Assembly (NCBI GenBank): GCA_041556555.1
Contig: JBFFIE010000006.1
Coordinates: forward strand, 5,452-69,451
Direction: 5' to 3'
DNA from: Gammaproteobacteria bacterium
Lineage (GTDB): Bacteria > Pseudomonadota > Gammaproteobacteria > Eutrophobiales > Eutrophobiaceae
Length of the DNA stretch: 64,000 bases
The notes beneath the pieces were generated by a model. That model saw only the letters and a program-made list of their open reading frames with translations, did not search any database and was not told the DNA's origin. Of the stretch, positions 9,031 through 60,798 are shown in pieces. The position numbers and the translations under genes were made by a program. Numbering within the stretch: the stretch's first letter is position 1; each line of letters opens with the position of its first letter.

Positions 9031-9077
9031 TGCTAACTCTCCGCTTGCTTTATCATTGCTTATTCTGTGATTTGTGC

Positions 9078-13122: not shown

Positions 13123-13195
13123 GCTATCAGGGACAGTACTGCAAACTTGAAACTCTGTTTCGGGGCGCTATACTTCGCAATCTCACAAAAAACTG

Positions 13196-13272: not shown

Positions 13273-13288
13273 TTTGGAGGAAAACCAG

Positions 13289-14704: not shown

Positions 14705-14719
14705 TGCGGGGCTCAGACA

Positions 14720-17124: not shown

Positions 17125-18446
17125 TGTATTACCAGTATTTTGGTCTGGAGCAACCGCCGTTCCGAATCACACCGGATACCTCCCTGTTTTATCCCGGCGG
17201 CAACCGTGGCGCGATCCTCGAAGCTCTGATTTATGCCATTGTCAATGGCGAAGGCATGATCAAGGTGGTCGGAGAGGTCGGCAGCGGCAAGACTATGTTA
17301 TGCCGTATGCTGACGGTGGAATTACCTGATCATATCGAAGTGGTCTATCTTGCGAACCCGAGTCTCTCTCCGGACAACATCCTGCATGCGATTGCCTTTG
17401 AACTGAAGCTGGACGTCAAGGCCGATGATGACCGCCTGGAGGTGATGAACAAGTTGCAGAATTACCTCCTTGAGCGGCATGCCCAGAGCCAGCAGGTGGT
17501 TGTGTTTGTTGAAGAGGCCCAGGGCATGCCTGTCCAGACCCTGGAACAGATTCGGCTGTTGACTAATCTCGAAACCAATGAGAACAAGCTGTTGCAGATT
17601 GTATTATTCGGTCAGCCGGAACTCGACGAGATGATTTCCAGTCGTGACATTCGTCAGCTGAAGGAGCGCATCACCTACAGTTTTAATCTGGGACCGCTTA
17701 ATGCCGAAGAGATCAAGGACTATATCAATACCCGGATCCGGGCCTGTGGTTGCCGTTCCGGTGATCTCTTTACCAGGCAGGCTATTCAGCAGATCAGCAG
17801 ATACTCGAATGGCCTGTTACGACGCATCAATATTCTCTCGGACAAATCATTGCTGGCCAGCTATGCGGCCAATGATCGGAGTGTCAAGCCACGCCATGTC
17901 AAACTGGCAGCGCGTGATACTGAATTCATCACGCCCTGGCAAAGGTATCGTCTGCCCATGTTTGTTCTGGCTGCATTGGTAATAATGGCCATCTTGGTAT
18001 TTTTAACGCCACTGGGCCAGACAGTGACGGACCTGATGAAAGCGACCCCGGTATCGCTCACTGATCCAGAAGACACTGACCTGACGGTTGATACAGCGAG
18101 ACCGGATATCCCGGTAGAATTGGGCAATGAGGCAAGTTCTGCACCCGAAGAGCCACAACCTGAGGCCGGGCAGGCAGCCGCCAGCATGCTTGCGAACGAT
18201 CTGGCAATTGAGCCCCCTGCCGAGGAGGCGCCAGATGAGCAGGAAATTCTCGAATCCATCCTCAAGGATTATTCAGCACGTTACCTGGCTATTGATGAGA
18301 TCATGAATGAGCAGGATGCCGAGTTATTTATCCAGCAAATCAAGTCCCGCCTCCCGGAGTCAGTGTACCTGGGACAACCAGAGTTACCCTGCCGTCTATG
18401 CCCTCTGATTGTTTACCGTCCTGTGAAATCTGACGAAAATCTATAG
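17124..18446 (+). CDS. ExeA/GspA-like AAA ATPase (MshM-like) with a C-terminal TM helix and an acidic Pro-rich tail
   Basis: The N-terminus [13 protein letters not shown] and the Walker A motif GEVGSGKT are characteristic of the ExeA family. One TM helix is present (LPMFVLAALVIMAILVFL). No peptidoglycan-binding domain is recognisable. Confidence 0.7.
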   Translation: MYYQYFGLEQPPFRITPDTSLFYPGGNRGAILEALIYAIVNGEGMIKVVGEVGSGKTMLCRMLTVELPDHIEVVYLANPSLSPDNILHAIAFELKLDVKADDDRLEVMNKLQNYLLERHAQSQQVVVFVEEAQGMPVQTLEQIRLLTNLETNENKLLQIVLFGQPELDEMISSRDIRQLKERITYSFNLGPLNAEEIKDYINTRIRACGCRSGDLFTRQAIQQISRYSNGLLRRINILSDKSLLASYAANDRSVKPRHVKLAARDTEFITPWQRYRLPMFVLAALVIMAILVFLTPLGQTVTDLMKATPVSLTDPEDTDLTVDTARPDIPVELGNEASSAPEEPQPEAGQAAASMLANDLAIEPPAEEAPDEQEILESILKDYSARYLAIDEIMNEQDAELFIQQIKSRLPESVYLGQPELPCRLCPLIVYRPVKSDENL

Positions 18447-18531
18447 TCGTCAGTTATTTATATAAACTATATAATCTGATAATGTAACGTTGGGGGTGGT
18501 TGTCGAGCGGCTAACGGAGGCAGTTTGTGTG

Positions 18532-21842: not shown

Positions 21843-21844
21843 CA

Positions 21845-23560
21845 ATGGCGAAATCAAATAAGAAACATCTACGTCTGGGTGAAATACTGGTACAGCAAGG
21901 TGTTACCACCCCGGATCAGATCGAGATAGCATTAACCGAGCAAAAGAAAAGCAAGGAAAAGCTGGGCAAGATACTGGTGCGCCTCGGCTTTGCAACAGAA
22001 GCCATCATTCGTGATGTTATCGGCGGTGTCATTGGCCAGGAAAGTGTCAACCTTGATTATGCCGTTCCCGACAGCGAGGCTGTGAAACTGATCCCGAAAA
22101 ACCTCGCCAGACGATTGCATGTCCTGCCCCTTACCTACGACAACACAGCAAAGACACTGACGGTAGCCATGACGGATACCTTCAACGTCGTTGTGCTGGA
22201 CCAGATTAGCGTCCAGGTAGGCCGTGAGATTGAACTGGTTCCTGTGCTCGCCGGCGAGGCCGAAATTGAAAAGGCCATCGACCAGTTTTACGGATTTGAA
22301 TTATCGGTTGATGGCATCCTGAATGAAATTGAAACCGGTGAAATCGACTACCAGAGCCTTGATTCGGAAACGGACGAATACAGTCAGCCGGTAGTAAGAT
22401 TGGTTAATGCATTGTTATCTGATGCGGTAAAGCGTGGGGCATCAGATATTCACTTTGAACCGGAAGAAGGATTCCTGCGTTTCCGTTATCGTATTGATGG
22501 CGTACTGCGACAGATACGTAGTATCCACAAGAACTACTGGTCTGCCATTGCAGTCCGCCTGAAAGTGATGTCGGGCATGGATATTGCTGAAACCCGCGCA
22601 CCACAGGATGGTCGAATTTCTCTTTCCCTCTCCGGCCGTATTGTCGATTTTCGCGTGTCAACCTTGCCGACAGTGCACGGTGAAAATATTGTCCTCCGGG
22701 TACTGGACCGGCAAAAAGGCATTGTCGCACTGGACAAATTGGGGCTTAAGGATGATGCACTGAATACTCTGAAGATCATGGTCGGCCGACCGGAAGGCAT
22801 CATCCTCGTCACCGGGCCCACGGGCAGTGGTAAAACCACAACGCTCTATTCCATCCTCAATTACCTGAATGAGGAAAACGTCAACATCATGACCCTGGAA
22901 GACCCGGTAGAATATCCGACCAGCATGATCCGCCAGACTTCGGCTAGCGAAACTTCGCGCCTGGATTTTGCCAGTGGTATCCGTTCCATGATGCGTCAGG
23001 ACCCCGACATTATCCTGGTCGGTGAGATTCGTGATGAGGACACGGCAAGTATGGCCCTGCGCGCCGCCATGACCGGTCACCAGGTGTTTTCCACCCTGCA
23101 CACCAATTCGGCCCTTGGTGCCATTCCCCGATTGCTGGATATCGGTGTCCAGGCCGATATCCTCGCCGGTAATATCATTGGTGTGCTCGCCCAGCGCCTG
23201 GTCAGGAAATTATGTGATGCCTGCAAGGAATCCTACCAGATGAGTGACCTGGAAAGGACACTTCTGAACCTGAAATCCACAGACAGGCAGCAGGATATTT
23301 TCCGGGCCAAGGGCTGCCAGCAGTGTGATGGTCAGGGTTACCGTGGTCGGTTGGCTATACTGGAAATACTGCACTTTGATGCAGATATGGATGAACTCAT
23401 TGCCCGGCGAGGCACCCAGCGAGAACTCATGCGCGCGGCCTTGTCCAAGGGTTTCAAGACACTGGCTGATTCCGGCTCTGACCGGGTCCTGGATGGCTCA
23501 ACATCACTTGAAGAAGTTTCCCGTGTAATTGACCTGACTGGACGTATAACACACAAGTAA
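21845..23560 (+). CDS. GspE/PilB-family type IV pilus assembly ATPase with an N-terminal MshEN (c-di-GMP-binding) motif pair, MshE-like
   Basis: Two tandem 24-aa motifs are present: RLGEILVQQGV...LTEQ and KLGKILVRLGF.... Walker A (GPTGSGKTTT), Asp box, His box and a tetracysteine motif are also present. Confidence 0.85.
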   Translation: MAKSNKKHLRLGEILVQQGVTTPDQIEIALTEQKKSKEKLGKILVRLGFATEAIIRDVIGGVIGQESVNLDYAVPDSEAVKLIPKNLARRLHVLPLTYDNTAKTLTVAMTDTFNVVVLDQISVQVGREIELVPVLAGEAEIEKAIDQFYGFELSVDGILNEIETGEIDYQSLDSETDEYSQPVVRLVNALLSDAVKRGASDIHFEPEEGFLRFRYRIDGVLRQIRSIHKNYWSAIAVRLKVMSGMDIAETRAPQDGRISLSLSGRIVDFRVSTLPTVHGENIVLRVLDRQKGIVALDKLGLKDDALNTLKIMVGRPEGIILVTGPTGSGKTTTLYSILNYLNEENVNIMTLEDPVEYPTSMIRQTSASETSRLDFASGIRSMMRQDPDIILVGEIRDEDTASMALRAAMTGHQVFSTLHTNSALGAIPRLLDIGVQADILAGNIIGVLAQRLVRKLCDACKESYQMSDLERTLLNLKSTDRQQDIFRAKGCQQCDGQGYRGRLAILEILHFDADMDELIARRGTQRELMRAALSKGFKTLADSGSDRVLDGSTSLEEVSRVIDLTGRITHK

Positions 23561-23563
23561 CAA

Positions 23564-24769
23564 ATGGAAGCATTTCAATATAAAGCAGTTGATGATCGGG
23601 GCCGGATAACCGTCGGCAAGATCGACGCCGTCAATATTGCAGATCTGGAGACGCGCCTCGACAGGATGGGTCTTGACCTGGTCAATTATAAAGACCTTGG
23701 GCCGACTGGACCAAAAATTACCGGCGTTGGTGTTTCGCGTCGTGACCTCATCACATTTTGTTTCCATCTTGAGCAAACCGGTCGTGCCGGCGTGCCGATT
23801 CTGGAGAGCCTCGAAGACCTGCGTGACAGTAGTGATAACCCCAGGCTGCGCGAAGTCATTGCAGCGATGATTGATTCCATCGAGGGTGGGCAAACACTAT
23901 CCCAGGCAATGCGTAATTACCCTGCGGTCTTCGACAGCATATTTTGCAACCTGGTCAGAGCGGGTGAACAGTCGGGTGAAATTGCCCAGGTATTCTATCA
24001 GCTGGGCGAGAACCTGAAATGGCAGGACGAGCAAGCAGCCCAGACCAAGAAACTCCTCATCTATCCGGCATTCGTCGGTACAGTTGTCATAGCCGTTGTT
24101 TTCTTCCTGATGGTCTACCTGGTGCCGGAATTGCTCCGCTTTGTAAAAACCATGGGCCAAGAGCTGCCCATGCACACCAAGATTCTGATCGTGGTTTCCA
24201 ATGCCTTTGTCCAGTACTGGTATCTGTTTGTCCTGATCCCGGTACTGGTGGTTGGCGGATTGATGATTGCGATAAGGGTGAACGAAACTGCAAGGTACCA
24301 ATATGATGCCTTCAAACTAAAAATACCGATTATTGGCCCGATACTTCGCAAAATCATCCTGACTCGCTTGACCAGCTTTTTTGCCATGATGTATGCATCT
24401 GGCATTACCATCATCGAGTGCATTCGTACCGGTGAACAGATAGTAGGTAACAAGGTAATTGAGCAGGCAATGCACCAGGTTGGTCAGCACATTGCCGACG
24501 GCGCAACGCTGAGTACCAGCTTTGAAAGAACAGAACTGTTTCCACCACTGGTGTTAAGAATGATACGTGTTGGCGAGAATACCGGAGCCCTTGAGGAATC
24601 ATTGATCAATATCAGCTACTTTTACACCCGCGATATCAAGGAATCGATTGAAAAATTGCAATCCATGATTGAGCCTACGATGACGGTTGTCCTTGGTGCA
24701 ATTATTGGCTGGGTCATGTTATCTGTCCTTGGACCTATTTATGATCTCATCACTAAAGTCAAAATTTGA
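23564..24769 (+). CDS. GspF/PilC-family inner-membrane platform protein, MshG-like
   Basis: 401 aa. Two GspF repeats and three TM segments are present. Confidence 0.85.
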   Translation: MEAFQYKAVDDRGRITVGKIDAVNIADLETRLDRMGLDLVNYKDLGPTGPKITGVGVSRRDLITFCFHLEQTGRAGVPILESLEDLRDSSDNPRLREVIAAMIDSIEGGQTLSQAMRNYPAVFDSIFCNLVRAGEQSGEIAQVFYQLGENLKWQDEQAAQTKKLLIYPAFVGTVVIAVVFFLMVYLVPELLRFVKTMGQELPMHTKILIVVSNAFVQYWYLFVLIPVLVVGGLMIAIRVNETARYQYDAFKLKIPIIGPILRKIILTRLTSFFAMMYASGITIIECIRTGEQIVGNKVIEQAMHQVGQHIADGATLSTSFERTELFPPLVLRMIRVGENTGALEESLINISYFYTRDIKESIEKLQSMIEPTMTVVLGAIIGWVMLSVLGPIYDLITKVKI

Positions 24770-26351
24770 TACGGGCGACCGCAGGGCAATCCTGCTCAGT
24801 TCAACCAAGCTTTTTGTTTACCTCTGGACAGACGGCAAGCTTGGTCGGACCTATATGTTTGACGTAACCGATCAGGGCCGGGCATTTTTTGACAATTACA
24901 TTAAGGAATCCGAGCTTCTGGAAACCTATTTCGTGGTTGATATTGTCGAGGAGGAATATCGCCAAGAAACGATACCTCATGTATTTGGTGGCGATCGCCG
25001 GGCGGTCATAAAGCGCAAAAAGGAGCGACTGTTTCGAGACACACCCTATTTTCATGCTGAGATACAGGGTCGGGTTGAAGAGGGCAGACGGGATGACCGG
25101 GTCCTGTTTACAGCATTAACCAACCAGGACATTATCCAGCCCTGGATTGATATTCTTCTGGAAAACAAGGTTCCGCTTGCCGGGATTTATTCCATTCCGC
25201 AGATTACCTCGTTATTACTCGACAAGCTGCCCGAGCCCTCGGAACACATGCTGATAGTCAGCATGCACAGCATTACAGGCCTCAGGCAGACATTTTTTCA
25301 CAAAAAGGAACTTAAAATCAGCCGACTGGTTGATCTGCCGCGCTACGGGACATCGCCCTATGCACCGATCATCCGCGAGGAGGTTGATGTCATTACCCGG
25401 TATCTTAACAGCTTGCGCCTCATTGACAGCGAGAAGCCATACGAGGTTTATTTTCTGGCTGACAACAAACTGCTGAGCGAGATCAAAAGCGAGTTGGATG
25501 AGTCTGCTTCGGTTAACTATCACTTTGTAAATCTGAATACCTTTGGCAGAGAGTGCGGACTTGAAATTGAAACAGCCAATCCGTTCAGTGAAAAACTGTT
25601 TATTTATCATCTGCTGAAAGAGAGGCCCGGTAATTACTACGCCCAGAAAAACGAAACGCATTATTATCGTATGTCACGCATCAGGGGCGCGATGTATGTC
25701 ACCAGCGTCTGCATGGTTCTCGCCAGCCTAATCTGGGGCAGTATTAATTTCACAATAGGTCTGAGTTACAGAAAACAGGCAGAATTGTCCCAGAAACAAT
25801 ACCAGTATTACAGTGAGCGGCTGAAAGAGGCACGCAAAGAGCTTGCTCCGAGTCCGGTCAGCCCCTATGACCTTAAAACACTGGTGGAAATGGCAGACAC
25901 ACTGAAAAAATACAAGACAGACCCTGCCGATATCTTCCAGGTCATCAGTCGTGGGCTGGCCCGGTTTCCACAGATTGAACTGACCAATATCACCTGGAAT
26001 TCATCCAGTAAACCTGCAAGCCAGGAAAACACCGTTGCCACCGGAGATCTCGGACGTGGTTTGGCAGGTTATAGCACGCTTGAAGTTAATAGCTCGGATT
26101 ACAAGTATTTCCAGAATATTTATCTCGATGGTTATCTAGCGTCCTTCGATGGCAACTATCGCAAGGGCATAGCCACGATAAACAATTTTGTTGAATCACT
26201 AAGAGGCATTGATGCGGTTGAGGATGTAGCTGTGATCAAGCTGCCATTAGACACCGGCTCAGATAATCCCCTGAGCGGTGATACCAATAATGAATCTCTG
26301 GAAGCTAATTTTTCAGTCAGGCTGGTAATGGGAGTCATGCCAAATGGATAG
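24741..26351 (+). CDS. PilM/PilN-type fusion assembly protein (MshI-like). Cytoplasmic actin-like N-domain, one TM helix, periplasmic coiled-coil domain
   Basis: ATG at 24741 overlaps the platform gene by 29 nt. About 330 aa are cytoplasmic. A TM helix (MYVTSVCMVLASLIWGSINF) is followed by a PilN-like periplasmic part. Confidence 0.5.
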   Translation: MISSLKSKFDTGDRRAILLSSTKLFVYLWTDGKLGRTYMFDVTDQGRAFFDNYIKESELLETYFVVDIVEEEYRQETIPHVFGGDRRAVIKRKKERLFRDTPYFHAEIQGRVEEGRRDDRVLFTALTNQDIIQPWIDILLENKVPLAGIYSIPQITSLLLDKLPEPSEHMLIVSMHSITGLRQTFFHKKELKISRLVDLPRYGTSPYAPIIREEVDVITRYLNSLRLIDSEKPYEVYFLADNKLLSEIKSELDESASVNYHFVNLNTFGRECGLEIETANPFSEKLFIYHLLKERPGNYYAQKNETHYYRMSRIRGAMYVTSVCMVLASLIWGSINFTIGLSYRKQAELSQKQYQYYSERLKEARKELAPSPVSPYDLKTLVEMADTLKKYKTDPADIFQVISRGLARFPQIELTNITWNSSSKPASQENTVATGDLGRGLAGYSTLEVNSSDYKYFQNIYLDGYLASFDGNYRKGIATINNFVESLRGIDAVEDVAVIKLPLDTGSDNPLSGDTNNESLEANFSVRLVMGVMPNG

Positions 26352-26961
26352 GGGCATGGATGTTTCGGTTCTCAAGGGCGCAGCTATTGTGTTTCTCATT
26401 AGTCTTTTGTTCAGTGGCGGCCTCGTCTGGAGCGGGTGGTATTTCAAGGATGAAATGCTGAATGCCTACAACAGGGCGAAAGCCCAACAAAAAAGTGTTG
26501 CAAGCAGCTATGTTTCCATTGATGAGGAGAAAAGACTGGTCAGGGAATATCTGCCAGTATTCAAGAATCTCCATACGTTTGGTGTATTTGGTCAGGAACA
26601 TAGACTTAATTGGCTGGAAACACTGCGCAGTACGGGTGAAAAGCTGAAACTCCCGGCATTGCGCTACGAAATTGATTCACAAGATATCTATGTTCCTGAT
26701 TACACGGTCAATAGTGGAACCTTCAAAATATACGCCAGCCCGATGATATTGAATGTTGAACTGGTTCACGAAATTGATTTACTTGATCTGCTGGATAACC
26801 TTGATCGGAAGGCACAGGGGATTTATAACCTTAAATCATGTGAACTGATCCGGTCTCCAAAGGATGTTTCCCGGGAAAAATTAGATTCATATGTAAATGC
26901 AGATTGCAAGCTGATGTGGTTTAACATCAAGAAATCTGACGGTAGAACGATAGATATCTAG
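26344..26961 (+). CDS. PilO-like (MshJ-like) bitopic inner-membrane protein
   Basis: 205 aa with an N-terminal TM helix, then a coiled coil, then a periplasmic domain. It overlaps the previous gene by 8 nt (ATGGATAG). Confidence 0.45.
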   Translation: MDRGMDVSVLKGAAIVFLISLLFSGGLVWSGWYFKDEMLNAYNRAKAQQKSVASSYVSIDEEKRLVREYLPVFKNLHTFGVFGQEHRLNWLETLRSTGEKLKLPALRYEIDSQDIYVPDYTVNSGTFKIYASPMILNVELVHEIDLLDLLDNLDRKAQGIYNLKSCELIRSPKDVSREKLDSYVNADCKLMWFNIKKSDGRTIDI

Positions 26962-26964
26962 ATA

Positions 26965-27438
26965 ATGAAAAAAGGCAAACACATCATTATATTCCTGGCA
27001 GGTAGCCTTTTTGTTACCCTGCTTCCGGCCAGAGATTTGTCTTCTCAGGATAACATCGGTCGCCTGTTCATGACACCGGAAGAGAGGAGAACGCTGGATC
27101 TATTACGGAATCAGGAAGATCGCTCGACTATTACCGTTCCAAGTCTTGCCATTGAAGATGATCCTGATGAGGTATTGGATGAACAAATAACCGGTATAAC
27201 GGTTGACGGAATTGTTTACAGGAAAAACGGCAAGAGCACAGCCTGGGTCAATGATGGAAATACCTACGAAGGAGACCTTTCTACCCAGTATCTTGACATC
27301 AACCCGGAGCATATCAGCCCCGGTGGCGTAAAGATAAAAGTCAAGAATAACGATAAATCCAGATTAATCAGGATGGAAACCGGGCAAACCTATGATCCTG
27401 TAAAAGATGAAGTTGTTGACCCGGTAAAGTACAAATAA
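26965..27438 (+). CDS. PilP-like (MshK-like) periplasmic protein with a signal peptide
   Basis: 157 aa with a signal peptide. Its position and size match the PilP/MshK slot. Confidence 0.4.
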   Translation: MKKGKHIIIFLAGSLFVTLLPARDLSSQDNIGRLFMTPEERRTLDLLRNQEDRSTITVPSLAIEDDPDEVLDEQITGITVDGIVYRKNGKSTAWVNDGNTYEGDLSTQYLDINPEHISPGGVKIKVKNNDKSRLIRMETGQTYDPVKDEVVDPVKYK

Positions 27439-27483
27439 CTCCCTCCCGCTTAATCACACCTGAATATTGTGGGATAGTTCAAT

Positions 27484-29178
27484 ATGAAAAAACCTGTGCC
27501 ACAAAAACAAAAGGGTGCCGTATTACTTGCTACTACACTTATCTTGATACTGGGCTCTGCCTGGTTATTGATTATCAACCTTAACAACAATGCCAGGCGT
27601 TTTGCGAATTACGAGGAGAGTATGCAAGTACTCAGAGAGGCAAAACAGGCCCTGATTGCCTATGCGGTTAACTATTACGAATCCAATCCTGGCCATTTCG
27701 GTTTTTTACCTTGCCCGGATTCAAGTACCACTGGTGAGGAGGGTAACCAGGAAGCCCCCTGTGGGGCACGATATGTCAATGTCATGGGTAAGTTTCCCTG
27801 GCAAGCGCTGGATCTTCCCCCACTGAAGGATGCTTATGGTCAATGCCTGTGGTATGCCGTCTCCGGTGCGGTCAAGGGAGGTAGTAGCCGCTCTGAAATG
27901 TTGAATGAAGATACCCATGGCACATTCCAGATTATGGATCCGGATGGCGTCACAGTGGTTGCCGGGGCCACACCCAGGGAAAGGCCGGTGGCCGTTATTT
28001 TCGCCCCGGGACGTTCCATTAATAACCAGACACGGGCCGATAGCAACGGCGCTATCTGTGAAGGGAATGAAGCGGTGAATTATGTGGCGAGTAATTATCT
28101 TGATGCCGAGGTACCGTCAAACCCCCTGTTGGGTATCAGGAATTATGTCGTAAGTTCCACAGCGGATACGGTAGACCAGTTCATAATGACAGGCGATCCG
28201 GAGAGTGAGGATTTCAATGATCTGATGCTTTACATCACGATTGATGAGATCTTTGATGCCATCAAGCAGCGTAACGATTTTGCAGATAAGCTTTACGACG
28301 AGGCCGCCTTGAATAATCTTACCTATCGGGTAGCAGAATGTATTGCCGGCTATGGCCAGTACCATGCCGATAAACACGTTGACGATGGTGATGGGGATTA
28401 CAATCGCAGCCTGCCTTGGCCTGCGCGTTTCGATTTTGCGGATGATGACAACCGTTACCGGTATGAAGCAGAATATTATGATATTGATAATAGTTCACTG
28501 CTCATGGGGAGAGTCCCCATAGATATCAGCAACAGCAACGATGAGATATATAATGGCTGCAGTTCACCGCATACCTGTTTACCCCCGTCTGACAGACTCA
28601 TAGACACCAGTACGTCGCCATATTCGGGGTTTTGCAGGGCGTTCTGGCTGGTGTATTCGGATAACCCGATTAGTCCATCTGCCACAAATGAGTTGATTGA
28701 CTTATGGAATAACTGGAAAGACCATTTATTCTATATTGTGTCGGAGGAATATCAGCCACAGCCCATGAGCGCAGATACAGATGCCTGCCTCGACACTACT
28801 CAATCACCGGATGAAATCGAACCTAGATGTATTACAATAAATGTGCCGTTCACTTATCCGCCGAATGACCAGTCGTTGAATATGACAATGGTGGCTGCAA
28901 TAGTTATTTTCTCTAATGAGACATTACCATCGTTATCACAGTCAAGATCGGCACCACCGATCGATACCGATGACAAGCAGAATCCTGCCTCGAATCTGGA
29001 AGACCGGAATATCATCCCCTATACGACTTCTGATGTAGGGATAGATACAGAGTTTTCCAGTAATCAAGTCAGTGCTACTTTTAATGATGTTCTTTATTGC
29101 ATCAATGAAGATACGGATGAAACGTCGATTGGCGGACCACCGCCGTTCAAGGCGGGCAGATGCCCGGTGAATCCATAA
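27484..29178 (+). CDS. Large PilX_N-type pilus-associated protein (pseudopilin-like N-terminal helix without the canonical G-F-T-L-I-E)
   Basis: The N-terminus QKGAVLLATTLILILGSAWLL resembles the PilX N-domain. It shares an LPCPD...C...G-x-F/L-PW-x-x-L-x-x-P block with the downstream pilin. The large C-terminal region is acidic. Confidence 0.5.
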   Translation: MKKPVPQKQKGAVLLATTLILILGSAWLLIINLNNNARRFANYEESMQVLREAKQALIAYAVNYYESNPGHFGFLPCPDSSTTGEEGNQEAPCGARYVNVMGKFPWQALDLPPLKDAYGQCLWYAVSGAVKGGSSRSEMLNEDTHGTFQIMDPDGVTVVAGATPRERPVAVIFAPGRSINNQTRADSNGAICEGNEAVNYVASNYLDAEVPSNPLLGIRNYVVSSTADTVDQFIMTGDPESEDFNDLMLYITIDEIFDAIKQRNDFADKLYDEAALNNLTYRVAECIAGYGQYHADKHVDDGDGDYNRSLPWPARFDFADDDNRYRYEAEYYDIDNSSLLMGRVPIDISNSNDEIYNGCSSPHTCLPPSDRLIDTSTSPYSGFCRAFWLVYSDNPISPSATNELIDLWNNWKDHLFYIVSEEYQPQPMSADTDACLDTTQSPDEIEPRCITINVPFTYPPNDQSLNMTMVAAIVIFSNETLPSLSQSRSAPPIDTDDKQNPASNLEDRNIIPYTTSDVGIDTEFSSNQVSATFNDVLYCINEDTDETSIGGPPPFKAGRCPVNP

Positions 29179-29181
29179 GCC

Positions 29182-29946
29182 ATGAACCAAAAAAACAAAA
29201 GCCTTGCTAGCCACGGTTTCACCCTGATAGAACTCGCTATCGTGTTGTTCATTGTCAGCCTGTTACTGGGCGGCTTGCTCATGCCCTATGCGACCAGTGT
29301 CGAACAACGGGAGCGTGAGGACACAGCCGAGATCCTGGAGGACATCAAGGAAGCTCTGTATGGACACGCATTGGTTAACGGTTACCTGCCTTGCCCGGAT
29401 TGCGAGACAGGCCAGGCCTGTGCAGCCGGTACACCGGATGACGGGATAGAAGACAGAAATGGCAACCTGTGTTCAGTAACGCTTTCTGCTCAAAATACCT
29501 ACACAGGGAATCTGCCCTGGGCCACGCTCGGCGTTCCCCAGTTTGATGCCTGGGAAAAACCATTTACCTACAGCGTGACCGATACTTTTTCAAATGACGC
29601 GGTTCCTTTTACCCTGACGGATACCGGGACGATAGACATACTCGACCAGGACGGCGCCGCCACGGCCCGGATAGCGCAGAGCATCCCCGCTATCGTAGTT
29701 TCCCACGGCAAGGATCATTATGTGCCCGCGCAAAGCGCAGACCAGGTAGAAAACTACGAGCGCGATGCGAACATATATGGCACAACCAATAGTATCCTCA
29801 CAGCATATTCAGGTGATAATGCCGGTGAATTTGTCTTTACCGATTACAGGCTCTTGGGGGGTAATATTGATTACGACGATATGATGATCTGGATTTCCCC
29901 GTTTGTCATCAAAAACCGGATGATTGCCGCAGGTCAACTGCCCTGA
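29182..29946 (+). CDS. Type IV (prepilin-type) minor pilin, Cys-rich
   Basis: The prepilin cleavage/methylation motif reads HG|FTLIELAIVLFIV. Five Cys residues fall within about 40 aa (LPCPDCETGQACAAG...NLC). It is the last gene of the operon. Confidence 0.75.
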   Translation: MNQKNKSLASHGFTLIELAIVLFIVSLLLGGLLMPYATSVEQREREDTAEILEDIKEALYGHALVNGYLPCPDCETGQACAAGTPDDGIEDRNGNLCSVTLSAQNTYTGNLPWATLGVPQFDAWEKPFTYSVTDTFSNDAVPFTLTDTGTIDILDQDGAATARIAQSIPAIVVSHGKDHYVPAQSADQVENYERDANIYGTTNSILTAYSGDNAGEFVFTDYRLLGGNIDYDDMMIWISPFVIKNRMIAAGQLP

Positions 29947-51111: not shown

Positions 51112-51187
51112 GGCCAGGTAGCTCAGTTGGTAGAGCAGGGGACTGAAAATCCCTGTGTCGGCAGTTCGATTCTGTCCCTGGCCACCA
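51112..51187 (+). tRNA. tRNA-Phe (GAA)
   Basis: 76 nt with a cloverleaf fold. The 7-bp acceptor pairs GGCCAGG with CCTGGCC. The anticodon loop reads cTGAAaa, the T-loop TTCGATT, and the 3' end is CCA. It is near-identical to E. coli tRNA-Phe. Confidence 0.95.
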
Positions 51188-51398
51188 TTAACTTCAGCTA
51201 TAAGCAATATGCATCCTGCCCTCGGACTGGGGTTTTCTCGGTTTAAGCGTCTATACTTATGTAATAAAACTGAAAATAGTGCCCTTCTGATATAAGTCAG
51301 TCTGTTAGGGGTTGACGGCCCATCCCAATTTGAGTTGCGTTTGCTGCAACGACCGCCATATCTATTCACAAGCTTTCATTAAAGAGGGGGGGTATCCT

Positions 51399-51791
51399 AT
51401 GTATAGTCACCAATCAGTAGCGGCTCGGGCTAGCAAGATCGGCTTGGTTCTTGTGATAGTTTTTGCAGGTGCATGGTTTGCTTTTGTCGATAAAGGCAGC
51501 AGTTCTCAAGTCTCGGCTCAAACACTTACCCAAATCGAAGTCACCATATTTTCCTATGATGGCCGGGATTTTGTTCGAGACCAGACCACATTAGTTGGCG
51601 AAGATGGAAAATCCGCCGTCCATACAATACTCGATCGTAATTCTCCGGCGTATAAGGCCTTAATTCAAAAGCACTCCTACACCGGGAAGGTCACTCTGTT
51701 TGGTCGAAAATATGATTCTACCTATGCGCCTCTAATTGACAATGATGATCGACTAACAGGCGCCCTGTTTGTTGCTGTGTCAATTCACTGA
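51399..51791 (+). pseudogene. Truncated sensor fragment: TM helix + Cache-like ligand-binding domain with no signalling module
   Basis: A strong SD (AAGAGGGGGGG) precedes the ATG. A TM helix (IGLVLVIVFAGAWFAF) is followed by a Cache-like domain ending ...YDSTYAPLIDNDDRLTGALFVAVS. The ORF stops right after the domain. It lies in an AT-rich tract downstream of tRNA-Phe. Confidence 0.4.
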
Positions 51792-52864: not shown

Positions 52865-53416
52865 ATGGACAGACTAATTAAAATCAATTGTTTCTGCTTG
52901 TTTTTATTGTTGTTGGGATTAAGTTTCATCACAATGGCAGAGACAGAACCCGGCGTGGTTACGGTCATGTCTGATGTCTATTCCCAGCCGGATCGGAACA
53001 CGCCAGCGATAATGACTATCCCAGCCGATGCCAAAGTGACCATTCTGGAACGCAAGGGAACCTGGTATCGGATAGAACAGCAATCGCCTGCAAATATTCA
53101 GGGCTGGATCTGGTTTAATGTCCAGCCGGAATCCAACCTGAGCTGGCTGGAACGGTTTCGCCGGGTGTTGAAAGGTGGCTACTCAACACAGGAATCAACC
53201 GCAGTGGCAACTATCGGTATCCGTGGCCTGGGGCCGGGAGATATTCGCAAGGCAACACCAGACACCAATGAACTTGGCAAACTGGATCGCTATCAGAGTG
53301 ATACGAGTCGAGCCAGACGCATGGCCGGTGCGGCCGGGCTGCATAGTCAACCGGTAACCTACTTGATAAAACCGGATACTCGCGAGTCGGGAACACAAGG
53401 AGGATATCCCCGATGA
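52865..53416 (+). CDS. Secreted bacterial SH3 (SH3b) domain protein
   Basis: A signal peptide starts at the ATG at 52865 (MDRLIKINCFCLFLLLLGLSFITMA). An SH3_3-like core follows (KGTWYRIEQQSPANIQGWIW). An alternative ATG lies at 52814. Confidence 0.5.
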   Translation: MDRLIKINCFCLFLLLLGLSFITMAETEPGVVTVMSDVYSQPDRNTPAIMTIPADAKVTILERKGTWYRIEQQSPANIQGWIWFNVQPESNLSWLERFRRVLKGGYSTQESTAVATIGIRGLGPGDIRKATPDTNELGKLDRYQSDTSRARRMAGAAGLHSQPVTYLIKPDTRESGTQGGYPR

Positions 53417-54294
53417 TGAAATTTGTGCTAAGCACGGTAATGGTATTCGCCATCATGTGGGGAACTATGTCGAATGTTTCCGCGGACTGGGGTGATGCAC
53501 TAAAGTTACTGGAAAAGGGCAGCGAAAAGTTGATCCAACACAAGGACGCCTTCATTGAAATCAATGAGCCCAGGGAAATTGAACTGGGGGAAGGTATGTC
53601 GGCACAATTGCTGGGTGCGGCGCCCCTGGTGGATAACAGGGAATTGCAACAGTATGTCAATGACGTCGGTCTCTGGCTGGCACTGCAGACCGAACGTCCC
53701 GACCTGCCCTGGCATTTTGGCGTTCTCGATGATAATGACATTAATGCCTTTGCAGCACCCGGCGGTTACATCTTCATTTCCAAAGGCCTGTTCATGTTGA
53801 TGCGCAATGAATCCGAACTGGCCGGCGTGCTTGCGCATGAGATTTCACACGTACTGGTGAAACATCACTTGGAAGATATTAGAGAGAAGGCACAGTCCGG
53901 AATATTGAAGGACATCGGGTCTGTCGCAGCCGAAGAACTGGCAGGTCCTGAATGGCAGCAAGTGGCCAGGCAATTGATCAATACCGGTGTCGATGTCTGG
54001 GAAAGCGGACTCAATCGTGACGACGAACTGGAGGCCGATCAACTGGGTGTCGTGATCGCTGCACGTGCCGGTTATGATCCTTATGGACTGGTCGGTGTCT
54101 TGCATACCCTGAGCCTCATTAGCCCGCAAGCGAAAACCTATCAATTAATGCACGCCACCCATCCACCGGCAGTGGATCGTGTTGAAAGACTGGAACAAGC
54201 CATGCAGGGGCAACTGGATAAATATTCAGACCAGGTGCAGGTCACCGGTCGGTTGATCAAGCTGCAACAACTGCTGGAAGACGATCAGGCCTGA
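53413..54294 (+). CDS. Periplasmic M48-family zinc metalloprotease (BepA/YcaL-like)
   Basis: A signal peptide, the HEISHV (HExxH) motif and the M48 fold are present. It is coupled to the previous gene through an ATGA overlap. Confidence 0.7.
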   Translation: MMKFVLSTVMVFAIMWGTMSNVSADWGDALKLLEKGSEKLIQHKDAFIEINEPREIELGEGMSAQLLGAAPLVDNRELQQYVNDVGLWLALQTERPDLPWHFGVLDDNDINAFAAPGGYIFISKGLFMLMRNESELAGVLAHEISHVLVKHHLEDIREKAQSGILKDIGSVAAEELAGPEWQQVARQLINTGVDVWESGLNRDDELEADQLGVVIAARAGYDPYGLVGVLHTLSLISPQAKTYQLMHATHPPAVDRVERLEQAMQGQLDKYSDQVQVTGRLIKLQQLLEDDQA

Positions 54295-54331: not shown

Positions 54332-55438
54332 TTACCAGCCCTGTAATAAGCCACCATCCGCGAAATCCCAGATGAGATATAGATATGCTTTATAGTCATA
54401 CCTGTCTGTATCGTTGATGGGTAATTCAGCACCCAGGTTCAAAGCAATATGTCCGCCCTTGCTCAGCCCGATCTGTGCCTGTGGAATAAGGCTGAGTTGC
54501 GCAAAATCTGCACGGTCGCTGCCTGTGCCACGTTCAATTGGAAATGATGCAACGAGTTCCAGTCCGGGATGCAAACTGCGTGGCCAGGGGCTCGGTGTCC
54601 AGTGAACAACCCCCGAAAGCTCGACAGAGCCGTCACTGAACCTGTCAAATGGCAGGTCTGCCCTGGCAGTACTCTGAAAAGTAATTTTATCAGTCAAGCG
54701 CTTCGCAGCAGCAATATATGGAATAAACTCATTGGAGTCACCGTGCTCTTCGGTCTTGATTGCAACCAGTGTACCCAGAGATGTGATGAACTGGTGTGCC
54801 GTGCTGGAATATAAAACGTACTTAATACCAGGCTCTATTTGATCAATGTTCCCTTTATTATCATCAATCGCATCATCAAAAGTATGGCTGAGTTCGAAGG
54901 AAAACTGGAACCGTTTCAGGAATCGTTTTTCAATTTCGAGAACATTTCGAACCTGGTCCCTGCTTGTATCACCGATATTATTTTGAAAGCGGAATTTCCA
55001 CACCACCTCGTCTTCGGGAAACGCCTTCTTGGTGCGTATCGGTAATATAAAGTTCATATCACCGGAGGGATAGCCATGATCGCCTGCAAGCGTCTTGATA
55101 TAGGCGACAATCAGATGAATCTCTTCATCACTTAATGAATCCTTGAATGCCGGCATGATCTCGGACCGCCCAAGTGCAGCGCCGCCATGCTTGATGACCA
55201 TGAACCAGTCCCTGGAAGGTTCACGACTATTGAATAACGGGTCCGTGAAATTTGCCGGAAATATGCCCAGCTCCCTGAATACGGGGTTCTCCGGGTCAGG
55301 TTTACCAGTGGCCCCGTGACAAGCAGCACAATTTGTTTGGTAGAGCTTGCCGGCATCCATATGTTCGTTTGCGTAGACGTATTGAACGGATACCAGGCAC
55401 AAAATAGAAATGCTGGATTTAATAAGATATCTGAACAT
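54332..55438 (-). CDS. Monoheme class I c-type cytochrome fused to a C-terminal beta-rich domain (putative outer-membrane beta-barrel)
   Basis: A signal peptide is followed by CAACH and a distal Met (EIMPAF). About 250 aa of alternating beta-strand pattern come next. The protein ends ...GGLLQGW with an aromatic terminus. Confidence 0.55.
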   Translation of the reverse strand: MFRYLIKSSISILCLVSVQYVYANEHMDAGKLYQTNCAACHGATGKPDPENPVFRELGIFPANFTDPLFNSREPSRDWFMVIKHGGAALGRSEIMPAFKDSLSDEEIHLIVAYIKTLAGDHGYPSGDMNFILPIRTKKAFPEDEVVWKFRFQNNIGDTSRDQVRNVLEIEKRFLKRFQFSFELSHTFDDAIDDNKGNIDQIEPGIKYVLYSSTAHQFITSLGTLVAIKTEEHGDSNEFIPYIAAAKRLTDKITFQSTARADLPFDRFSDGSVELSGVVHWTPSPWPRSLHPGLELVASFPIERGTGSDRADFAQLSLIPQAQIGLSKGGHIALNLGAELPINDTDRYDYKAYLYLIWDFADGGLLQGW

Positions 55439-55552
55439 GGGATGCCCGCTAGTTAAAACTATATGAATTATTAATACAGCGCTCGTTCAGGATATTGATA
55501 CAGATCAAGCGCTCTGATTTATATTGTGATTATGAAGCTGCCAGGTCGACAG

Positions 55553-56440
55553 TCAATCGGGTAACGGGATTACCGTGCCCACACCGGAGAAAACATAATC
55601 ATCTTCCCACATATCATGGAAAATATATTGGGCCGGTTCTCCGGTACAATGACCCGGCGCAAGATGCCTGACCTTAAACAGGTTCTTTAAAGCATCTGCA
55701 ATCGAATAAATTTTCTCATCAGGCATGGTGGGCATGTGATAACCACCCAATACCATATAGATATTGTTATTAATAGCGGATGCTTCATTGACAATATTGT
55801 CAACGCCGGGATGTGAACAGCCAACAATAATCACCAGTCCCTGGCTGGTTTCAATCACCAGTGAAATTTCACGCAATTCCTTGGTGCCCGGTGTGTCAGA
55901 CACTAATGAGACGAGGAGAATGCCCGGCATGATTTGTCGGGTGGTATCAATATACTCAAAATCACCCTTGGGCCAGGCTTTGCCAAACGTCATGATCTCG
56001 GGAGGATGGCCATCATAATAGCGAAGATAATCCGGCAACTCGCTATTCTTGCGATAGAAACTGCTGGGCAGCTCACTGCCGAAGATCCCGAATGACTCCA
56101 CGGGTGCATAAATCCTGACGTCGGGATTCACTTGCATTAAATAATTAACACCGGCCGTGTGATCCAGGTGCCGGTGGGAGAGGACCACGAAATCGAGCTG
56201 GTTTAAGTCAACACCGGCCGCTTTCACATTATGCGCAAAGATCTCTGCATTATTACCGGTATCAAACAGGATCCGTTTGTCATTGAACCTGATTAATGCA
56301 GAGAAGCCCCAGTCCTTGGTCATATGGGGATCTTTGCCGAAGGCATCATATAGGATGGTGATAGAATTGCTGGAAGCCGCGCTTGCAGTGCCGGTAAAAG
56401 CAACAAGGATCAGATACAGTAATATCAATCGAAATTGCAT
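55553..56440 (-). CDS. Secreted MBL-fold metallo-hydrolase
   Basis: A signal peptide and an HRHLDHTAG motif (HxHxDH) are present. Confidence 0.7.
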   Translation of the reverse strand: MQFRLILLYLILVAFTGTASAASSNSITILYDAFGKDPHMTKDWGFSALIRFNDKRILFDTGNNAEIFAHNVKAAGVDLNQLDFVVLSHRHLDHTAGVNYLMQVNPDVRIYAPVESFGIFGSELPSSFYRKNSELPDYLRYYDGHPPEIMTFGKAWPKGDFEYIDTTRQIMPGILLVSLVSDTPGTKELREISLVIETSQGLVIIVGCSHPGVDNIVNEASAINNNIYMVLGGYHMPTMPDEKIYSIADALKNLFKVRHLAPGHCTGEPAQYIFHDMWEDDYVFSGVGTVIPLPD

Positions 56441-59892: not shown

Positions 59893-60798
59893 CTATAAAT
59901 CTACCCGCAAACCTTCGCGGGCTACATGGCACTTCAAATTCGATTTTCTATCGGAGATTATATCCAATGCATGCTGATGAATACCGTCAATCATTTCATC
60001 ATCATAATTTGGATCATGATGATACAGGTAAAGTTCCTTTACTCCAGCATCAATCGCCATATTGACGGTATCAATATAACAGGAATGGCCCCAACCGCGT
60101 TTTCTGTTGTAATCCTCGGTCGTGTATTGGGCATCATGAATCAAAATGTCCGCATTGCGGATGATTTCCAGTTCCGATTGATGCTCTTCCCTGATCATAT
60201 CGTCATAGAGTGATTGCTCTTCGTGGTTTAGTTCGGAACGTTGCTTGGAAACCGATTTCTCGATGAACTTGCATTCATTATCAGATATATAAATGACAGT
60301 CTTTCCATTTACACAAATCCGGTATCCGAAAGTTGCTCCGGGATGATGGACATTCCTGAATGTAATCTTCATTGGTCCGTGTTGCAATGTATCATTATTG
60401 GGACAGACGTAGTTGATTTTAGCAAGCCAGGATTCAGTGCCGACGGGGAAATAAGGCGCCTTCATTTGGGCAGAAACATGTTTTTCGACATCATGCATGT
60501 CATTACCGGGTCCGAAGAAGTTGATTGTCCATTCTTCCAGGAAGGCCGGGACAAAAAAGGGAAGCCCGCAGACATGGTCCCAGTGATAATGGGTAAGGAG
60601 CAGCATCAGTTCGCGGGCATTGCCTTTTACAAGTTCATTGCCCAGAGGAATGACACCAGTACCCGCATCGCATATCAAGGTATGACCGTCAGCGCTGATC
60701 TCGACGCAGGACGTATTGCCTCCGACTTTCAGGTGTGAGTCAAACGGGGCTGCATAGGAACCACGCACACCCCAAAAGCGGAGATATTTATTGCTCAT
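59893..60798 (-). CDS. MBL-fold metallo-hydrolase (cytoplasmic)
   Basis: The motifs THYHWDHV and HD...H are present. Confidence 0.7.
   Translation of the reverse strand: MSNKYLRFWGVRGSYAAPFDSHLKVGGNTSCVEISADGHTLICDAGTGVIPLGNELVKGNARELMLLLTHYHWDHVCGLPFFVPAFLEEWTINFFGPGNDMHDVEKHVSAQMKAPYFPVGTESWLAKINYVCPNNDTLQHGPMKITFRNVHHPGATFGYRICVNGKTVIYISDNECKFIEKSVSKQRSELNHEEQSLYDDMIREEHQSELEIIRNADILIHDAQYTTEDYNRKRGWGHSCYIDTVNMAIDAGVKELYLYHHDPNYDDEMIDGIHQHALDIISDRKSNLKCHVAREGLRVDL

Follow-up and report, generated by a model that had tools for sequence, protein, structure and literature searches.

A class I cytochrome c fused to a predicted 12-stranded outer-membrane barrel of the COG4313 kind in Gammaproteobacteria

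The window, the whole 64,000-nucleotide stretch of gammaproteobacterial DNA that was analysed, carries a gene for a secreted protein in which a complete class I cytochrome c domain is followed by a 12-stranded beta-barrel. Structure models and strand patterns predict that this barrel resides in the outer membrane, and both the location and the fused architecture are very likely. The protein belongs to a family that is real and widespread, and that is undescribed in the literature. Taken as a whole, it is probably an outer-membrane redox module, namely a 12-stranded channel related to COG4313/Phenol_MetA_deg to which a monoheme class I cytochrome with His/Met ligation is covalently attached on the periplasmic side. 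The open reading frame lies on the minus strand, starts with ATG, and encodes a product of 368 amino acids. The gene, its parts, and the sites beside it are as follows:

54332..55438, minus strand: whole gene, secreted cytochrome c fused to a predicted 12-strand outer-membrane barrel (368 aa plus stop; 615 full-length homologues; AlphaFold2 pLDDT 90.6, pTM 0.84)
55529..55556, minus strand: promoter-like TTGACT-16-CATAAT, on weak evidence, within the 115-bp gap that precedes the start codon (10 of 12 positions agree with the consensus)
55370..55438, minus strand: putative signal peptide, residues 1-23, MFRYLIKSSISILCLVSVQYVYA (assigned by inspection; a helix of lower pLDDT in the AlphaFold2 model)
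55088..55369, minus strand: class I c-type cytochrome domain, residues 24-117, all-helical and monoheme (PF13442 and PF00034 above cut-off; model helices within 29-114)
55316..55330, minus strand: heme attachment motif CAACH, residues 37-41 (C37, C40, H41; invariant in 69 of 69 relatives)
55145..55156, minus strand: MPAF motif with the distal heme ligand Met95 (M95 and P96 invariant; aligned with the Met-ligand region of CcoP)
55010..55087, minus strand: conserved pre-beta1 segment, residues 118-143, AGDHGYPSGDMNFILPIRTKKAFPED, a putative barrel-inserted plug or tether (conservation; pLDDT without the cytochrome)
54368..55009, minus strand: 12-stranded antiparallel beta-barrel, residues 144-357 (DSSP on the AlphaFold2 model and a barrel-only model; Foldseek; face analysis)
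54332..54367, minus strand: C-terminal tail DFADGGLLQGW plus stop, residues 358-368 (D358, A360, D361, G362, and W368 invariant)
53413-54294, plus strand: neighbouring M48 peptidase
55553-56440, minus strand: neighbouring MBL-fold protein

The N-terminus of the product resembles, by eye, a Sec signal peptide that is likely cut by signal peptidase I after VYA; inspection of this stretch finds no lipobox. Promoter-like sites are no more numerous in the region than in shuffled sequence.

The heme domain is a complete class I fold of the His/Met type. The sequence-only reading had described such a domain on the strength of the CAACH motif and a Met ligand, and the Pfam scores, the invariant residues, and the helical model all agree with that description. 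Over residues 28-117, the domain scores 42.7 bits against Cytochrome_CBB3 (PF13442; cut-off 27) and 40.7 bits against Cytochrom_C (PF00034; cut-off 21.3), and both families are matched by all 69 relatives. The closest PDB sequence matches are CcoP and other class I cytochromes. Helices in the AlphaFold2 model span residues 29-36, 52-57, 67-72, 75-84, and 104-114. The CxxCH motif is present as a single copy in the window protein and in every one of the 69 relatives, across which C37, C40, H41, and the M95-P96 pair are invariant. Hemes of the His/Met type serve as electron carriers and not as catalytic sites.

A count of strands by AlphaFold had been recommended in the sequence-only reading, and the full-length model gives, with high confidence, 12 antiparallel strands (DSSP: 144-153, 162-173, 177-188, 195-212, 217-228, 237-247, 252-263, 271-280, 289-300, 314-324, 331-340, and 349-357). 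Twelve strands are also obtained when the barrel is predicted separately. Every significant Foldseek match in the PDB is an outer-membrane barrel, and the top ones are 12-stranded: the best is FapF (5o65; E 8e-9), and the matches include NanC (2wjq), KdgM (4fqe; TMt 0.84), and the COG4313 protein Pput2725 (4rl8; E 3e-6, probability 1.00; TMq 0.63 with the barrel-only model), as well as the barrels of intimin and invasin. The period-2 alternation of hydrophobicity in the predicted strands exceeds that of all 5,000 of 5,000 within-strand shuffles. Residue entropy is 0.86 bits on the polar strand face as against 1.49 bits on the hydrophobic face (p = 5.5e-6), and 20 invariant positions fall on the polar face compared with 4 on the hydrophobic one. 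The connections between strands, measured from the DSSP boundaries, are 3, 4, 4, 8, and 6 residues long on the side of the N- and C-termini and 6-13 residues long on the other side; the short connections on the terminal side imply the arrangement typical of outer-membrane barrels, in which the two termini lie in the periplasm. A final W is kept by 68 of the 69 relatives. The fusion had originally been proposed from a C-terminal stretch of about 250 residues with an amphipathic beta pattern and an aromatic end (...QGW). Both of these features hold up, and the confident model, the exclusively outer-membrane fold matches, and the face pattern uphold the fusion itself.

The barrel is a divergent relative of the COG4313/Phenol_MetA_deg channels, and is not a member by Pfam's own rule. 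This reading follows from the presence of a sister clade above the PF13557 (Phenol_MetA_deg) cut-off together with the homology of the two clades. Against a cut-off of 22 bits, 4 of the 7 sister-clade members tested score 24.7-28.1 bits; the same profile gives weak matches for 15 of the 69 own-clade proteins (best E 1.2e-4) and no match to the window protein itself, even at E <= 10. When the two clades are compared by hhalign (A1 vs A3), the full-length profiles are aligned with a probability of 100% (E 3e-67) and the barrels alone with a probability of 99.96% (E 9e-39). A search with the Phenol_MetA_deg profile was among the checks first suggested for this protein, and it pointed to the family of the barrel by way of the sister clade and the weak own-clade matches. 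For the C-terminal 250 or so residues of the window protein, Pfam and NCBIfam give no match. Because the barrel profiles of both clades retrieve nothing meaningful from the PDB sequences, it is fold similarity and Pfam that carry the link to 4RL8. In COG4313 channels, a Pro-Thr-Gly loop cluster is the proposed site of lateral opening. This cluster is absent from the window's clade, in which the corresponding region reads IKTEEHGDSNE; the sister clade keeps the motif LPTGDE, matched to the Pro-Thr-Gly motif of Pput2725 by position only, with P110, G112, and D113 invariant and T111 present in at least 90% of members.

The 26-residue pre-beta1 segment carries a dense set of invariant residues (P124, G126, N129, L132, K138, A139, P141, E142, and D143), and its motif is kept in the sister clade as LNLPRALVTEKAYPEDE. 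Predicted without the cytochrome domain, residues 128-147 still have a pLDDT of 91-94. In the AlphaFold2 model, the linker between cytochrome and barrel has a helix of just three residues. The C-terminal tail follows the final strand, and it shares one side of the barrel with the N-terminus. Its pLDDT drops from 83 to 71/49 on removal of the cytochrome domain, and this drop suggests that the tail touches the cytochrome. In Pput2725, the N-terminal 14 or so residues sit in the lumen and include a conserved Glu and Gly (PMC4493636); G126, E142, and E144 are invariant in or at the segment described here. From the pLDDT behaviour and this analogy, we infer that the linker may occupy the lumen while the cytochrome docks at the periplasmic mouth. 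A direct-coupling analysis of 387 family sequences (effective number 273), aimed at placing the linker and cytochrome relative to the barrel, was discarded because the positive control did not hold: no more than 1-2 pairs of adjacent strands ranked in the top 100, and artefacts of indels and clade shifts were dominant.

The window's clade includes 615 clusters of full-length homologues from at least 190 gammaproteobacterial species, with Xanthomonadales-like bacteria, Woeseiaceae, Wenzhouxiangellaceae, and others as hosts. The sister clade, likewise of full-length homologues, exceeds 6,770 clusters in Gemmatimonadota, Acidobacteriota, Rhodothermota, and other groups. Cultured carriers include Elongatibacter sediminis, Wenzhouxiangella sp. 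XN79A, three Lentisalinibacter species, Denitratimonas tolerans, and Longibacter salinarum. In databases, proteins of the family are labelled only “cytochrome c”, and literature searches, surveys of extracellular electron transfer included, turn up no description of a fusion between a cytochrome and either a COG4313/Phenol_MetA_deg protein or a 12-strand barrel. Thousands of independent sequences with the same architecture rule out an artefact of gene fusion or assembly. No complete barrel-only relative is found among those inspected; the relatives of 257-297 aa that a barrel profile search returns as barrel-only begin at or just before the MPAF motif and are truncated gene calls.

The neighbours of the gene had been read as secreted hydrolases. 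The M48 peptidase and the MBL-fold protein are indeed present, but neither is conserved beside the gene, even in a relative of 80% identity, and both were dropped as functional partners. Among 80 loci of the window's clade, no single gene family is found at more than 8, and a conserved redox neighbour is found at none. Nor does the rest of the window offer a respiratory context, its annotation being limited to housekeeping and pilus genes. In 62 of 80 sister-clade loci, and in 5 of 5 loci besides, the adjacent gene encodes a secreted pentaheme cytochrome of ExtKL/c552 type. This partner matches ExtKL, 8e5g, and 5ze8, which are members of the PHC family (PMC11976967), and it has no homologue in the 64-kb window or in the 80 own-clade loci. 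The pairing with a pentaheme cytochrome suggests that the sister-clade proteins belong to an unrecognised outer-membrane electron-transfer module; the operon argument reaches the window's clade by homology only, as no conserved redox neighbour exists there.

A redox-coupled channel is put forward, tentatively, as the likeliest mechanism. The protein would be exported by the Sec pathway and receive its heme in the periplasm before the barrel inserts into the outer membrane. The pre-beta1 segment (LNxxLPxRTKKAFPEDE) would fold into the lumen from the periplasmic side, like the N-terminus of Pput2725, and together with the invariant tail (WDFADGG..GW) would hold the cytochrome tightly at the barrel's periplasmic opening; the lumen would be lined with invariant, mostly acidic residues. 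By way of the heme, soluble periplasmic carriers could then exchange electrons with a small redox-active solute that the narrow channel lets in, the candidates being a metal cation or a molecule of the quinone or phenolic type. In the sister clade, the module would work with the adjacent secreted pentaheme cytochrome (ExtKL/c552, PHC); in the gammaproteobacterial clade of the window, this linkage would have been lost, leaving the gene to stand alone. A plugged 12-strand barrel may pass nothing, which would speak against this mechanism and make the barrel a mere anchor. It is possible, if doubtful, that the family represents a new outer-membrane redox device, in which a COG4313-type small-molecule channel is wired to a heme and mostly teamed with a PHC-type pentaheme cytochrome. 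With such a device, no large Mtr-type conduit would be needed to exchange electrons with diffusible extracellular species (metal ions, or quinone/humic or phenolic shuttles), and the window's clade would have a stripped-down version served by general periplasmic cytochromes only.

An unlikely alternative to the redox-coupled channel is that the barrel is permanently plugged, transports nothing, and keeps a carrier cytochrome c close to the outer membrane's inner face for a nearby redox partner, a logic resembling that of the outer-membrane-tethered redox lipoproteins of Neisseria. The His/Met carrier type of the heme fits such an anchor, and the conserved polar lumen and linker could be a purely structural network of salt bridges. 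Pput2725, moreover, is nearly fully occluded by its own N-terminus and conducts poorly (PMC4493636). However, 12 strands and 20 invariant lumen-face residues, kept across phyla, exceed the needs of an anchor, for which the usual cheap solutions are lipid anchors or 8-strand barrels, and the COG4313 relatives are uptake channels.

It is improbable that the protein is an analogue of Cyc2, that is, an outer-membrane Fe(II)/Mn(II) oxidase in which metal enters an acidic pore, is oxidised by the fused heme, and yields electrons that pass through periplasmic carriers to a terminal oxidase. The layout of signal peptide, N-terminal CxxCH, and fused barrel is shared with Cyc2 (PMC8406198), the nearest matches of the cytochrome are CcoP-type domains that feed cbb3 oxidases, and the invariant residues of lumen and linker are mostly acidic, which favours cations (E142, D143, E144, E168, E170, E182, E202, E273, E294, and E338). 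Yet the motif AxPxFAR[Q/K][T/Y], which upstream of CxxCH is unique to Cyc2 (PMC8406198), is found five residues upstream of CxxCH in 0 of 69 relatives (NEHMDAGKLYQTN being present there in the window protein). Likewise, 0 of 69 have PxL four residues downstream, where the window protein reads GATGKPDPEN, and both structure predictions give 12 strands in place of the 16-stranded OprO/OprP-like porin by which Cyc2 is recognised. The initial judgement that this is not a Cyc2 protein is borne out. In addition, the heme domain is too big for a 12-strand lumen, so that the metal would be oxidised at the periplasmic end and Fe(III) would precipitate there. Hosts of the window's clade are not known to oxidise or reduce iron, and no neighbours of the rus, cyc1, or oxidase type are found.

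Display in the manner of an autotransporter, with the cytochrome as a passenger exported through or alongside the 12-strand barrel, the linker spanning the lumen, and the heme facing the cell exterior, is very improbable. The order of domains is that of type Va (N-terminal passenger, lumen segment, C-terminal 12-strand barrel), intimin and invasin are among the fold matches, and the structure of COG4313 is closest to post-cleavage autotransporter barrels (PMC4493636). Nevertheless, at a threshold as loose as E <= 10 the 69 relatives yield no match to an autotransporter family, the three-residue linker helix does not span a lumen, and the tail, which must be periplasmic, appears from its loss of pLDDT to contact the cytochrome. 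Cytochrome c maturation attaches the heme within the periplasm, and its product is a folded domain. A folded heme domain is far wider than the 10-12 A lumen (PMC4493636). The chance that the C-terminal domain is a soluble beta-sandwich, barrel, or propeller in a periplasmic two-domain cytochrome, the outcome named at the start as the one that would refute the fusion, is close to negligible: the window protein's domain lacks a sequence-family match and its mean hydropathy is not high (-0.34), but all significant structural matches are integral outer-membrane barrels, conservation is the inverse of that in soluble proteins, with a variable, lipid-facing hydrophobic side and a conserved polar one, the sister clade is over the PF13557 threshold, and the terminal aromatic residue is conserved.

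Until now, the fused cytochrome-porins have been Cyc2 and Cyt572, which serve as genome markers for iron oxidation. The family described here is a second, unrelated fusion of a heme domain to a predicted outer-membrane barrel, in which a full class I cytochrome is placed on a 12-strand channel of COG4313 kind. The phyla of the sister clade are dominant and poorly understood in soil and sediment. If the electron-transfer module were confirmed, it would change how extracellular and outer-membrane redox capacity is inferred from metagenomes, and the COG4313 channels would gain a variant with a built-in spectroscopic reporter. The cultured carriers make direct testing of the family possible.

The window protein shares with Cyc2 and Cyt572 a signal peptide, a single N-terminal CxxCH, and the fusion of a c-heme domain to an outer-membrane barrel; its 368 residues are borderline with respect to the minimum length used in Cyc2 screens (365 aa). 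There is no sequence homology between them, and the Cyc2 barrel has 16-17 strands. The heme domain of Cyc2 is short and plug-like, whereas that of the window protein is a complete fold of about 95 residues with a Met ligand. The host taxa also differ from those of Cyc2, and the genes lack an iron-oxidation context.

The likeness to the porin-cytochrome systems (MtrAB/MtoAB/PioAB and Geobacter ExtHIJKL) lies in the sister clade, which pairs an outer-membrane barrel gene with a multiheme cytochrome gene; its pentaheme cytochrome is a distant relative of ExtKL, which is encoded in one cluster with the porin gene extI. The barrels of the MtrAB and Ext type have about 20-28 strands around a multiheme protein, and a 12-strand barrel is too small for that arrangement. 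In contrast to these conduits, the heme domain of the window protein is fused rather than inserted, and the own-clade gene has no multiheme partner nearby. A relationship to MtrB, which had also been proposed for checking, is not supported: there is no MtrB_PioB match, and members of that family have about 26 strands, which surround a separate decaheme cytochrome.

Among the structural matches, FapF (5O65) and KdgM/NanC are 12-stranded like the window protein, and FapF also has an N-terminal plug element. Their identity to the window protein is 8-15%, and none has a cofactor domain; FapF, a product of the fap operon, is a trimeric peptide transporter, and KdgM/NanC are open porins for sugar acids. 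COG4313 proteins (Pput2725 of Pseudomonas putida F1, PDB 4RL8; TcpY, SphA) share the 12-strand barrel of about 250 residues. In Pput2725, as here, a conserved segment precedes strand 1, and that of Pput2725 enters the lumen from the periplasmic side. The known members of COG4313 are stand-alone channels without a redox domain, implicated in the uptake of hydrophobic molecules. In the window protein, by contrast, the lumen is dominated by invariant charged residues, and the segment before strand 1 runs on into a cytochrome c.

The gene for the fused cytochrome lies exactly where a sequence-only reading of the window had placed it, and the N-terminal part of its product carries a single heme site:

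54332..55438, minus strand: window gene, ATG start, 368 aa
residues 1-23: Sec signal peptide without a lipobox, read by inspection
residues 28-117: class I cytochrome c domain, above the curated Pfam cut-offs
residues 37-41: heme-attachment motif CAACH, in single copy in the protein

The domain scores 42.7 bits against Cytochrome_CBB3 (cut-off 27) and 40.7 bits against Cytochrom_C (cut-off 21.3), and among solved sequences it comes closest to CcoP and further His/Met cytochromes of the electron-carrier type. Across 69 aligned relatives from the window's own clade (alignment A1), C37, C40, H41 and M95-P96 are invariant, which bears out the earlier description of a full class I cytochrome c with a CAACH site and a Met ligand. 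The remainder of the protein, residues 118-368, has no family match in Pfam or NCBIfam and no sequence match in the PDB, profile search included; it ends in QGW.

The C-terminal part is nonetheless well predicted. With A1 as input, the AlphaFold2 model of the whole protein (mean pLDDT 90.6, pTM 0.84) consists of a helical N-terminal domain and 12 long antiparallel strands across residues 144-357, and residues 118-368 predicted alone again give 12 strands (pLDDT 86.8). Foldseek matches the model in the PDB to integral outer-membrane barrels only, the best being 12-stranded: FapF (5o65, E 8e-9), NanC (2wjq), KdgM (4fqe, TMt 0.84) and the COG4313 channel Pput2725 (4rl8, E 3e-6); the barrel-only model matches the same structures (TMq 0.57-0.68). 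In the alignment, the two-face alternation of the strands exceeds that of all 5,000 shuffles. Variation is concentrated on the hydrophobic face, with an entropy of 1.49 bits and 4 invariant positions; the polar face, at 0.86 bits and with 20 invariant positions, is conserved (p = 5.5e-6 against the hydrophobic face). This pattern is the opposite of a soluble beta fold and fits a membrane barrel with a functional lumen. Counted from the strand boundaries of the model, the connections on the side of the two termini are short (3, 4, 4, 8 and 6 residues) and those on the opposite side span 6-13 residues, a pattern that in the predicted structure is the one customary for outer-membrane proteins, with N- and C-terminus in the periplasm. 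The outer-membrane barrel proposed from the amphipathic beta pattern and the QGW end is upheld by strand count, fold matches and face conservation; the fusion itself is confirmed as an observation, and its interpretation is supported by structure prediction.

Between cytochrome and barrel runs a conserved linker (residues 118-143), in which P124, G126, N129, L132, K138, A139, P141, E142 and D143, together with the adjoining E144, are invariant in A1. Further invariant residues lie in the strands and around the C-terminal tail (W357, D358, A360, D361, G362 and W368), and Trp is the last residue in 68 of the 69 relatives. Residues 128-147 hold a pLDDT of 91-94 in the barrel-only prediction, so the linker is structurally part of the barrel module. 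Confidence in the tail falls from 83 to 71/49 when the cytochrome is left out, which suggests that the invariant tail touches the heme domain on the periplasmic side of the predicted structure. The exact placement of linker and heme is inferred.

A search of 5.8 billion proteins yields 615 relatives; nearly all of the 120 listed are 350-390 aa long and align with 90% or more of the query, and these 120 bear only the labels "cytochrome c" or "mono/diheme cytochrome c family protein". In a scan of one genome per species, at least 190 species carry relatives, almost all of them Gammaproteobacteria of the Xanthomonadales/Lysobacterales, Wenzhouxiangellaceae, Woeseiaceae, Steroidobacteraceae and Halieaceae groups, with Elongatibacter sediminis, Wenzhouxiangella sp. 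XN79A, Lentisalinibacter spp. and Denitratimonas tolerans among the cultured carriers. Five carrier bins (loci L055, L060, L076, L016 and L017) are labelled Halobacteria archaeon, Verrucomicrobiota, Enterobacteriaceae or Halomonas; these look like mis-binning or mislabelling rather than real hosts, because this outer-membrane protein is otherwise confined to Xanthomonadales-like Gammaproteobacteria.

The gene has no conserved neighbourhood in its own clade: with all ORFs of 80 own-clade loci clustered, and three distant own-clade loci also compared, no neighbour family recurs in more than 8 loci. The secreted hydrolases noted earlier (M48, MBL) do flank the gene, but neither adjacency is conserved, even in an 80%-identical relative. 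A promoter-like site occupies the 115-bp gap upstream, where such sites are no commoner than chance. The rest of the window is ordinary chromosome, with an fba-pyk-pgk-gap-tkt cluster, SAM-cycle genes, an MSHA-type pilus cluster, mutY, an AsmA-family gene, thiS-thiG and two tRNA genes. Several of its features can be placed:

4215-11072, minus strand, and 11953-15628, plus strand: compact fba (class I)-pyk-pgk-gap-tkt cluster, then metK, ahcY and metF
17124-29946, plus strand: MSHA-type pilus/secretion cluster on one strand (AAA_22 ATPase, secretin, TPR protein, MshE-type T2SSE ATPase, T2SSF protein)
24687-26351 and 27484-29178: ORFs of about 555-565 aa in the MSHA-type cluster, zero Pfam matches
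51112-51187, plus strand: tRNA-Phe
51312-51791, plus strand: ORF of 159 aa (130 aa in the public contig) directly after tRNA-Phe
55553-56440, minus strand, and 59893-60798, minus strand: two different MBL-fold proteins less than 5 kb apart

The fba-metF arrangement is common in autotrophic or methylotrophic Gammaproteobacteria and is the sole clue in the window to the host's lifestyle. The ORF after tRNA-Phe matches just the first part of a Cache_3-Cache_2 sensor domain (profile positions 93-183 of 299), lacks an output domain and may be what is left of a sensor gene after truncation. The 295-aa MBL-fold protein adjoining the window gene carries a signal peptide, and precomputed annotation gives it a weak Anti-Pycsar Apyc1-like match.

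A profile of linker and barrel (A2), searched against 1.84 billion representatives, matches 377 clusters. Seemingly barrel-only matches all start at the cytochrome's MPAF motif and are truncated gene calls. Among the complete relatives inspected none lacks the cytochrome, so that the fusion seems to be constant. The distant full-length matches form a sister clade (alignment A3) of more than 6,770 clusters at E <= 1e-10, hosted by Gemmatimonadota, Acidobacteriota (Vicinamibacteria, Thermoanaerobaculia) and Rhodothermota (Longibacter salinarum). By hhalign the two clades are homologous across cytochrome, linker and barrel (probability 100%, E 3.4e-67, 332 columns), as are the barrels alone (99.96%, E 8.7e-39). 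A kinship with Phenol_MetA_deg (PF13557), considered at the outset, holds in part: four sister-clade members score 24.7-28.1 bits (cut-off 22), and 15 of the 69 own-clade relatives match weakly (best E 1.2e-4), this being their sole recurring non-cytochrome family, but the window protein itself has no match. PF13557 corresponds to COG4313, of which the 12-stranded Pput2725 is the one solved member; the first 14 or so residues of Pput2725, a conserved Glu and Gly among them, are folded into its lumen from the periplasm (PMC4493636). The linker resembles this plug in belonging to the barrel module. Sister-clade proteins (e.g., P0159 C90, C141) have two additional invariant cysteines, in FTDCxF within the cytochrome domain and in RxFCxD at the linker start, where the own clade has Pro and Leu/Ala; the two probably pair in a disulfide that staples the cytochrome to the segment inserted into the barrel.

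Directly downstream of the sister-clade gene lies one for a secreted pentaheme cytochrome, about 550 aa long and with CxxCH in five places (e.g., L090:7110-8783, L087:7256-8914, L089:7163-8776). This partner is present in all five loci found by exact protein and adjacent in 62 of 80 metagenome loci (L091-L170), 50 times downstream on the same strand (median gap about 18 bp) and 12 times divergently upstream; 10 of the 18 partnerless loci have flanks too short to judge. A first clue to it came from two database proteins, P0265 (564 aa) and P0207 (372 aa), that run from the barrel gene on into the pentaheme gene and are probably due to a frameshift or to chimeric gene calling. Between phyla the partner shows 60-63% identity, and its family comprises at least 8,000 clusters, of which nearly all are called "hypothetical protein". 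The partner matches the ExtKL model, 8e5g (the archaeal nanowire cytochrome AvECN) and the T. tepidum pentaheme c552 (5ze8, E 1.2e-4), weakly but in a mutually consistent way, and these are exactly the members of a proposed "PHC" pentaheme family; Geobacter extKL is clustered with the outer-membrane porin gene extI (PMC11976967). Sequence comparison points to a distant relationship with all three. No homologue of the partner occurs in the 64-kb window or the 80 own-clade loci.

The protein is very probably a secreted cytochrome c with one heme, joined in a constant fusion to a 12-strand outer-membrane barrel of the COG4313 type. A periplasmic position of the cytochrome is favoured, because c-type heme is attached in the periplasm, a lumen of 10-12 Å, the width given for Pput2725 (PMC4493636), is too narrow for a folded cytochrome to pass and the loop lengths are those of standard outer-membrane proteins. 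A tentative mechanism, rather doubtful as a whole, is that the linker would plug the lumen from the periplasm, linker and tail would hold the cytochrome at the periplasmic mouth, and the heme would relay electrons between carriers in the periplasm and some small solute, itself redox-active, let in by the channel; in the sister clade the pentaheme partner may also belong to the relay. The lumen face is conserved and largely acidic, which suggests cations as the solute, and the COG4313 relatives suggest hydrophobic or phenolic molecules.

The likeliest rival holds that the barrel is purely an anchor. Next in likelihood is a Cyc2-like metal oxidase, likewise a cytochrome-porin fusion. Cyc2 is defined by AxPxFAR[Q/K][T/Y] upstream of CxxCH, PxL downstream and a 16-strand porin (PMC8406198); neither motif occurs in any of the 69 relatives, and the window protein has 12 predicted strands rather than 16, so the earlier suspicion of a fusion distinct from Cyc2 stands. 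Less likely still is an autotransporter-like surface display of the cytochrome, and family searches find no autotransporter match in any relative. A soluble C-terminal fold, sandwich or propeller, is the least likely and is argued against by the outer-membrane-barrel matches together with the variable hydrophobic and conserved polar faces.

Among known systems, MtrB, named in the sequence-only reading, finds no counterpart, as no relative matches the MtrB_PioB family. Full-text literature searches gave no paper joining COG4313/Phenol_MetA_deg barrels to cytochromes and no description of the fusion or of the fusion-pentaheme gene pair; database entries for the fusion proteins exist, named only "cytochrome c". 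Cyt572, the one further cytochrome-porin fusion on record, belongs structurally with Cyc2. The present proteins are rated a second class of cytochrome fused to an outer-membrane barrel, distinct in structure from the first.
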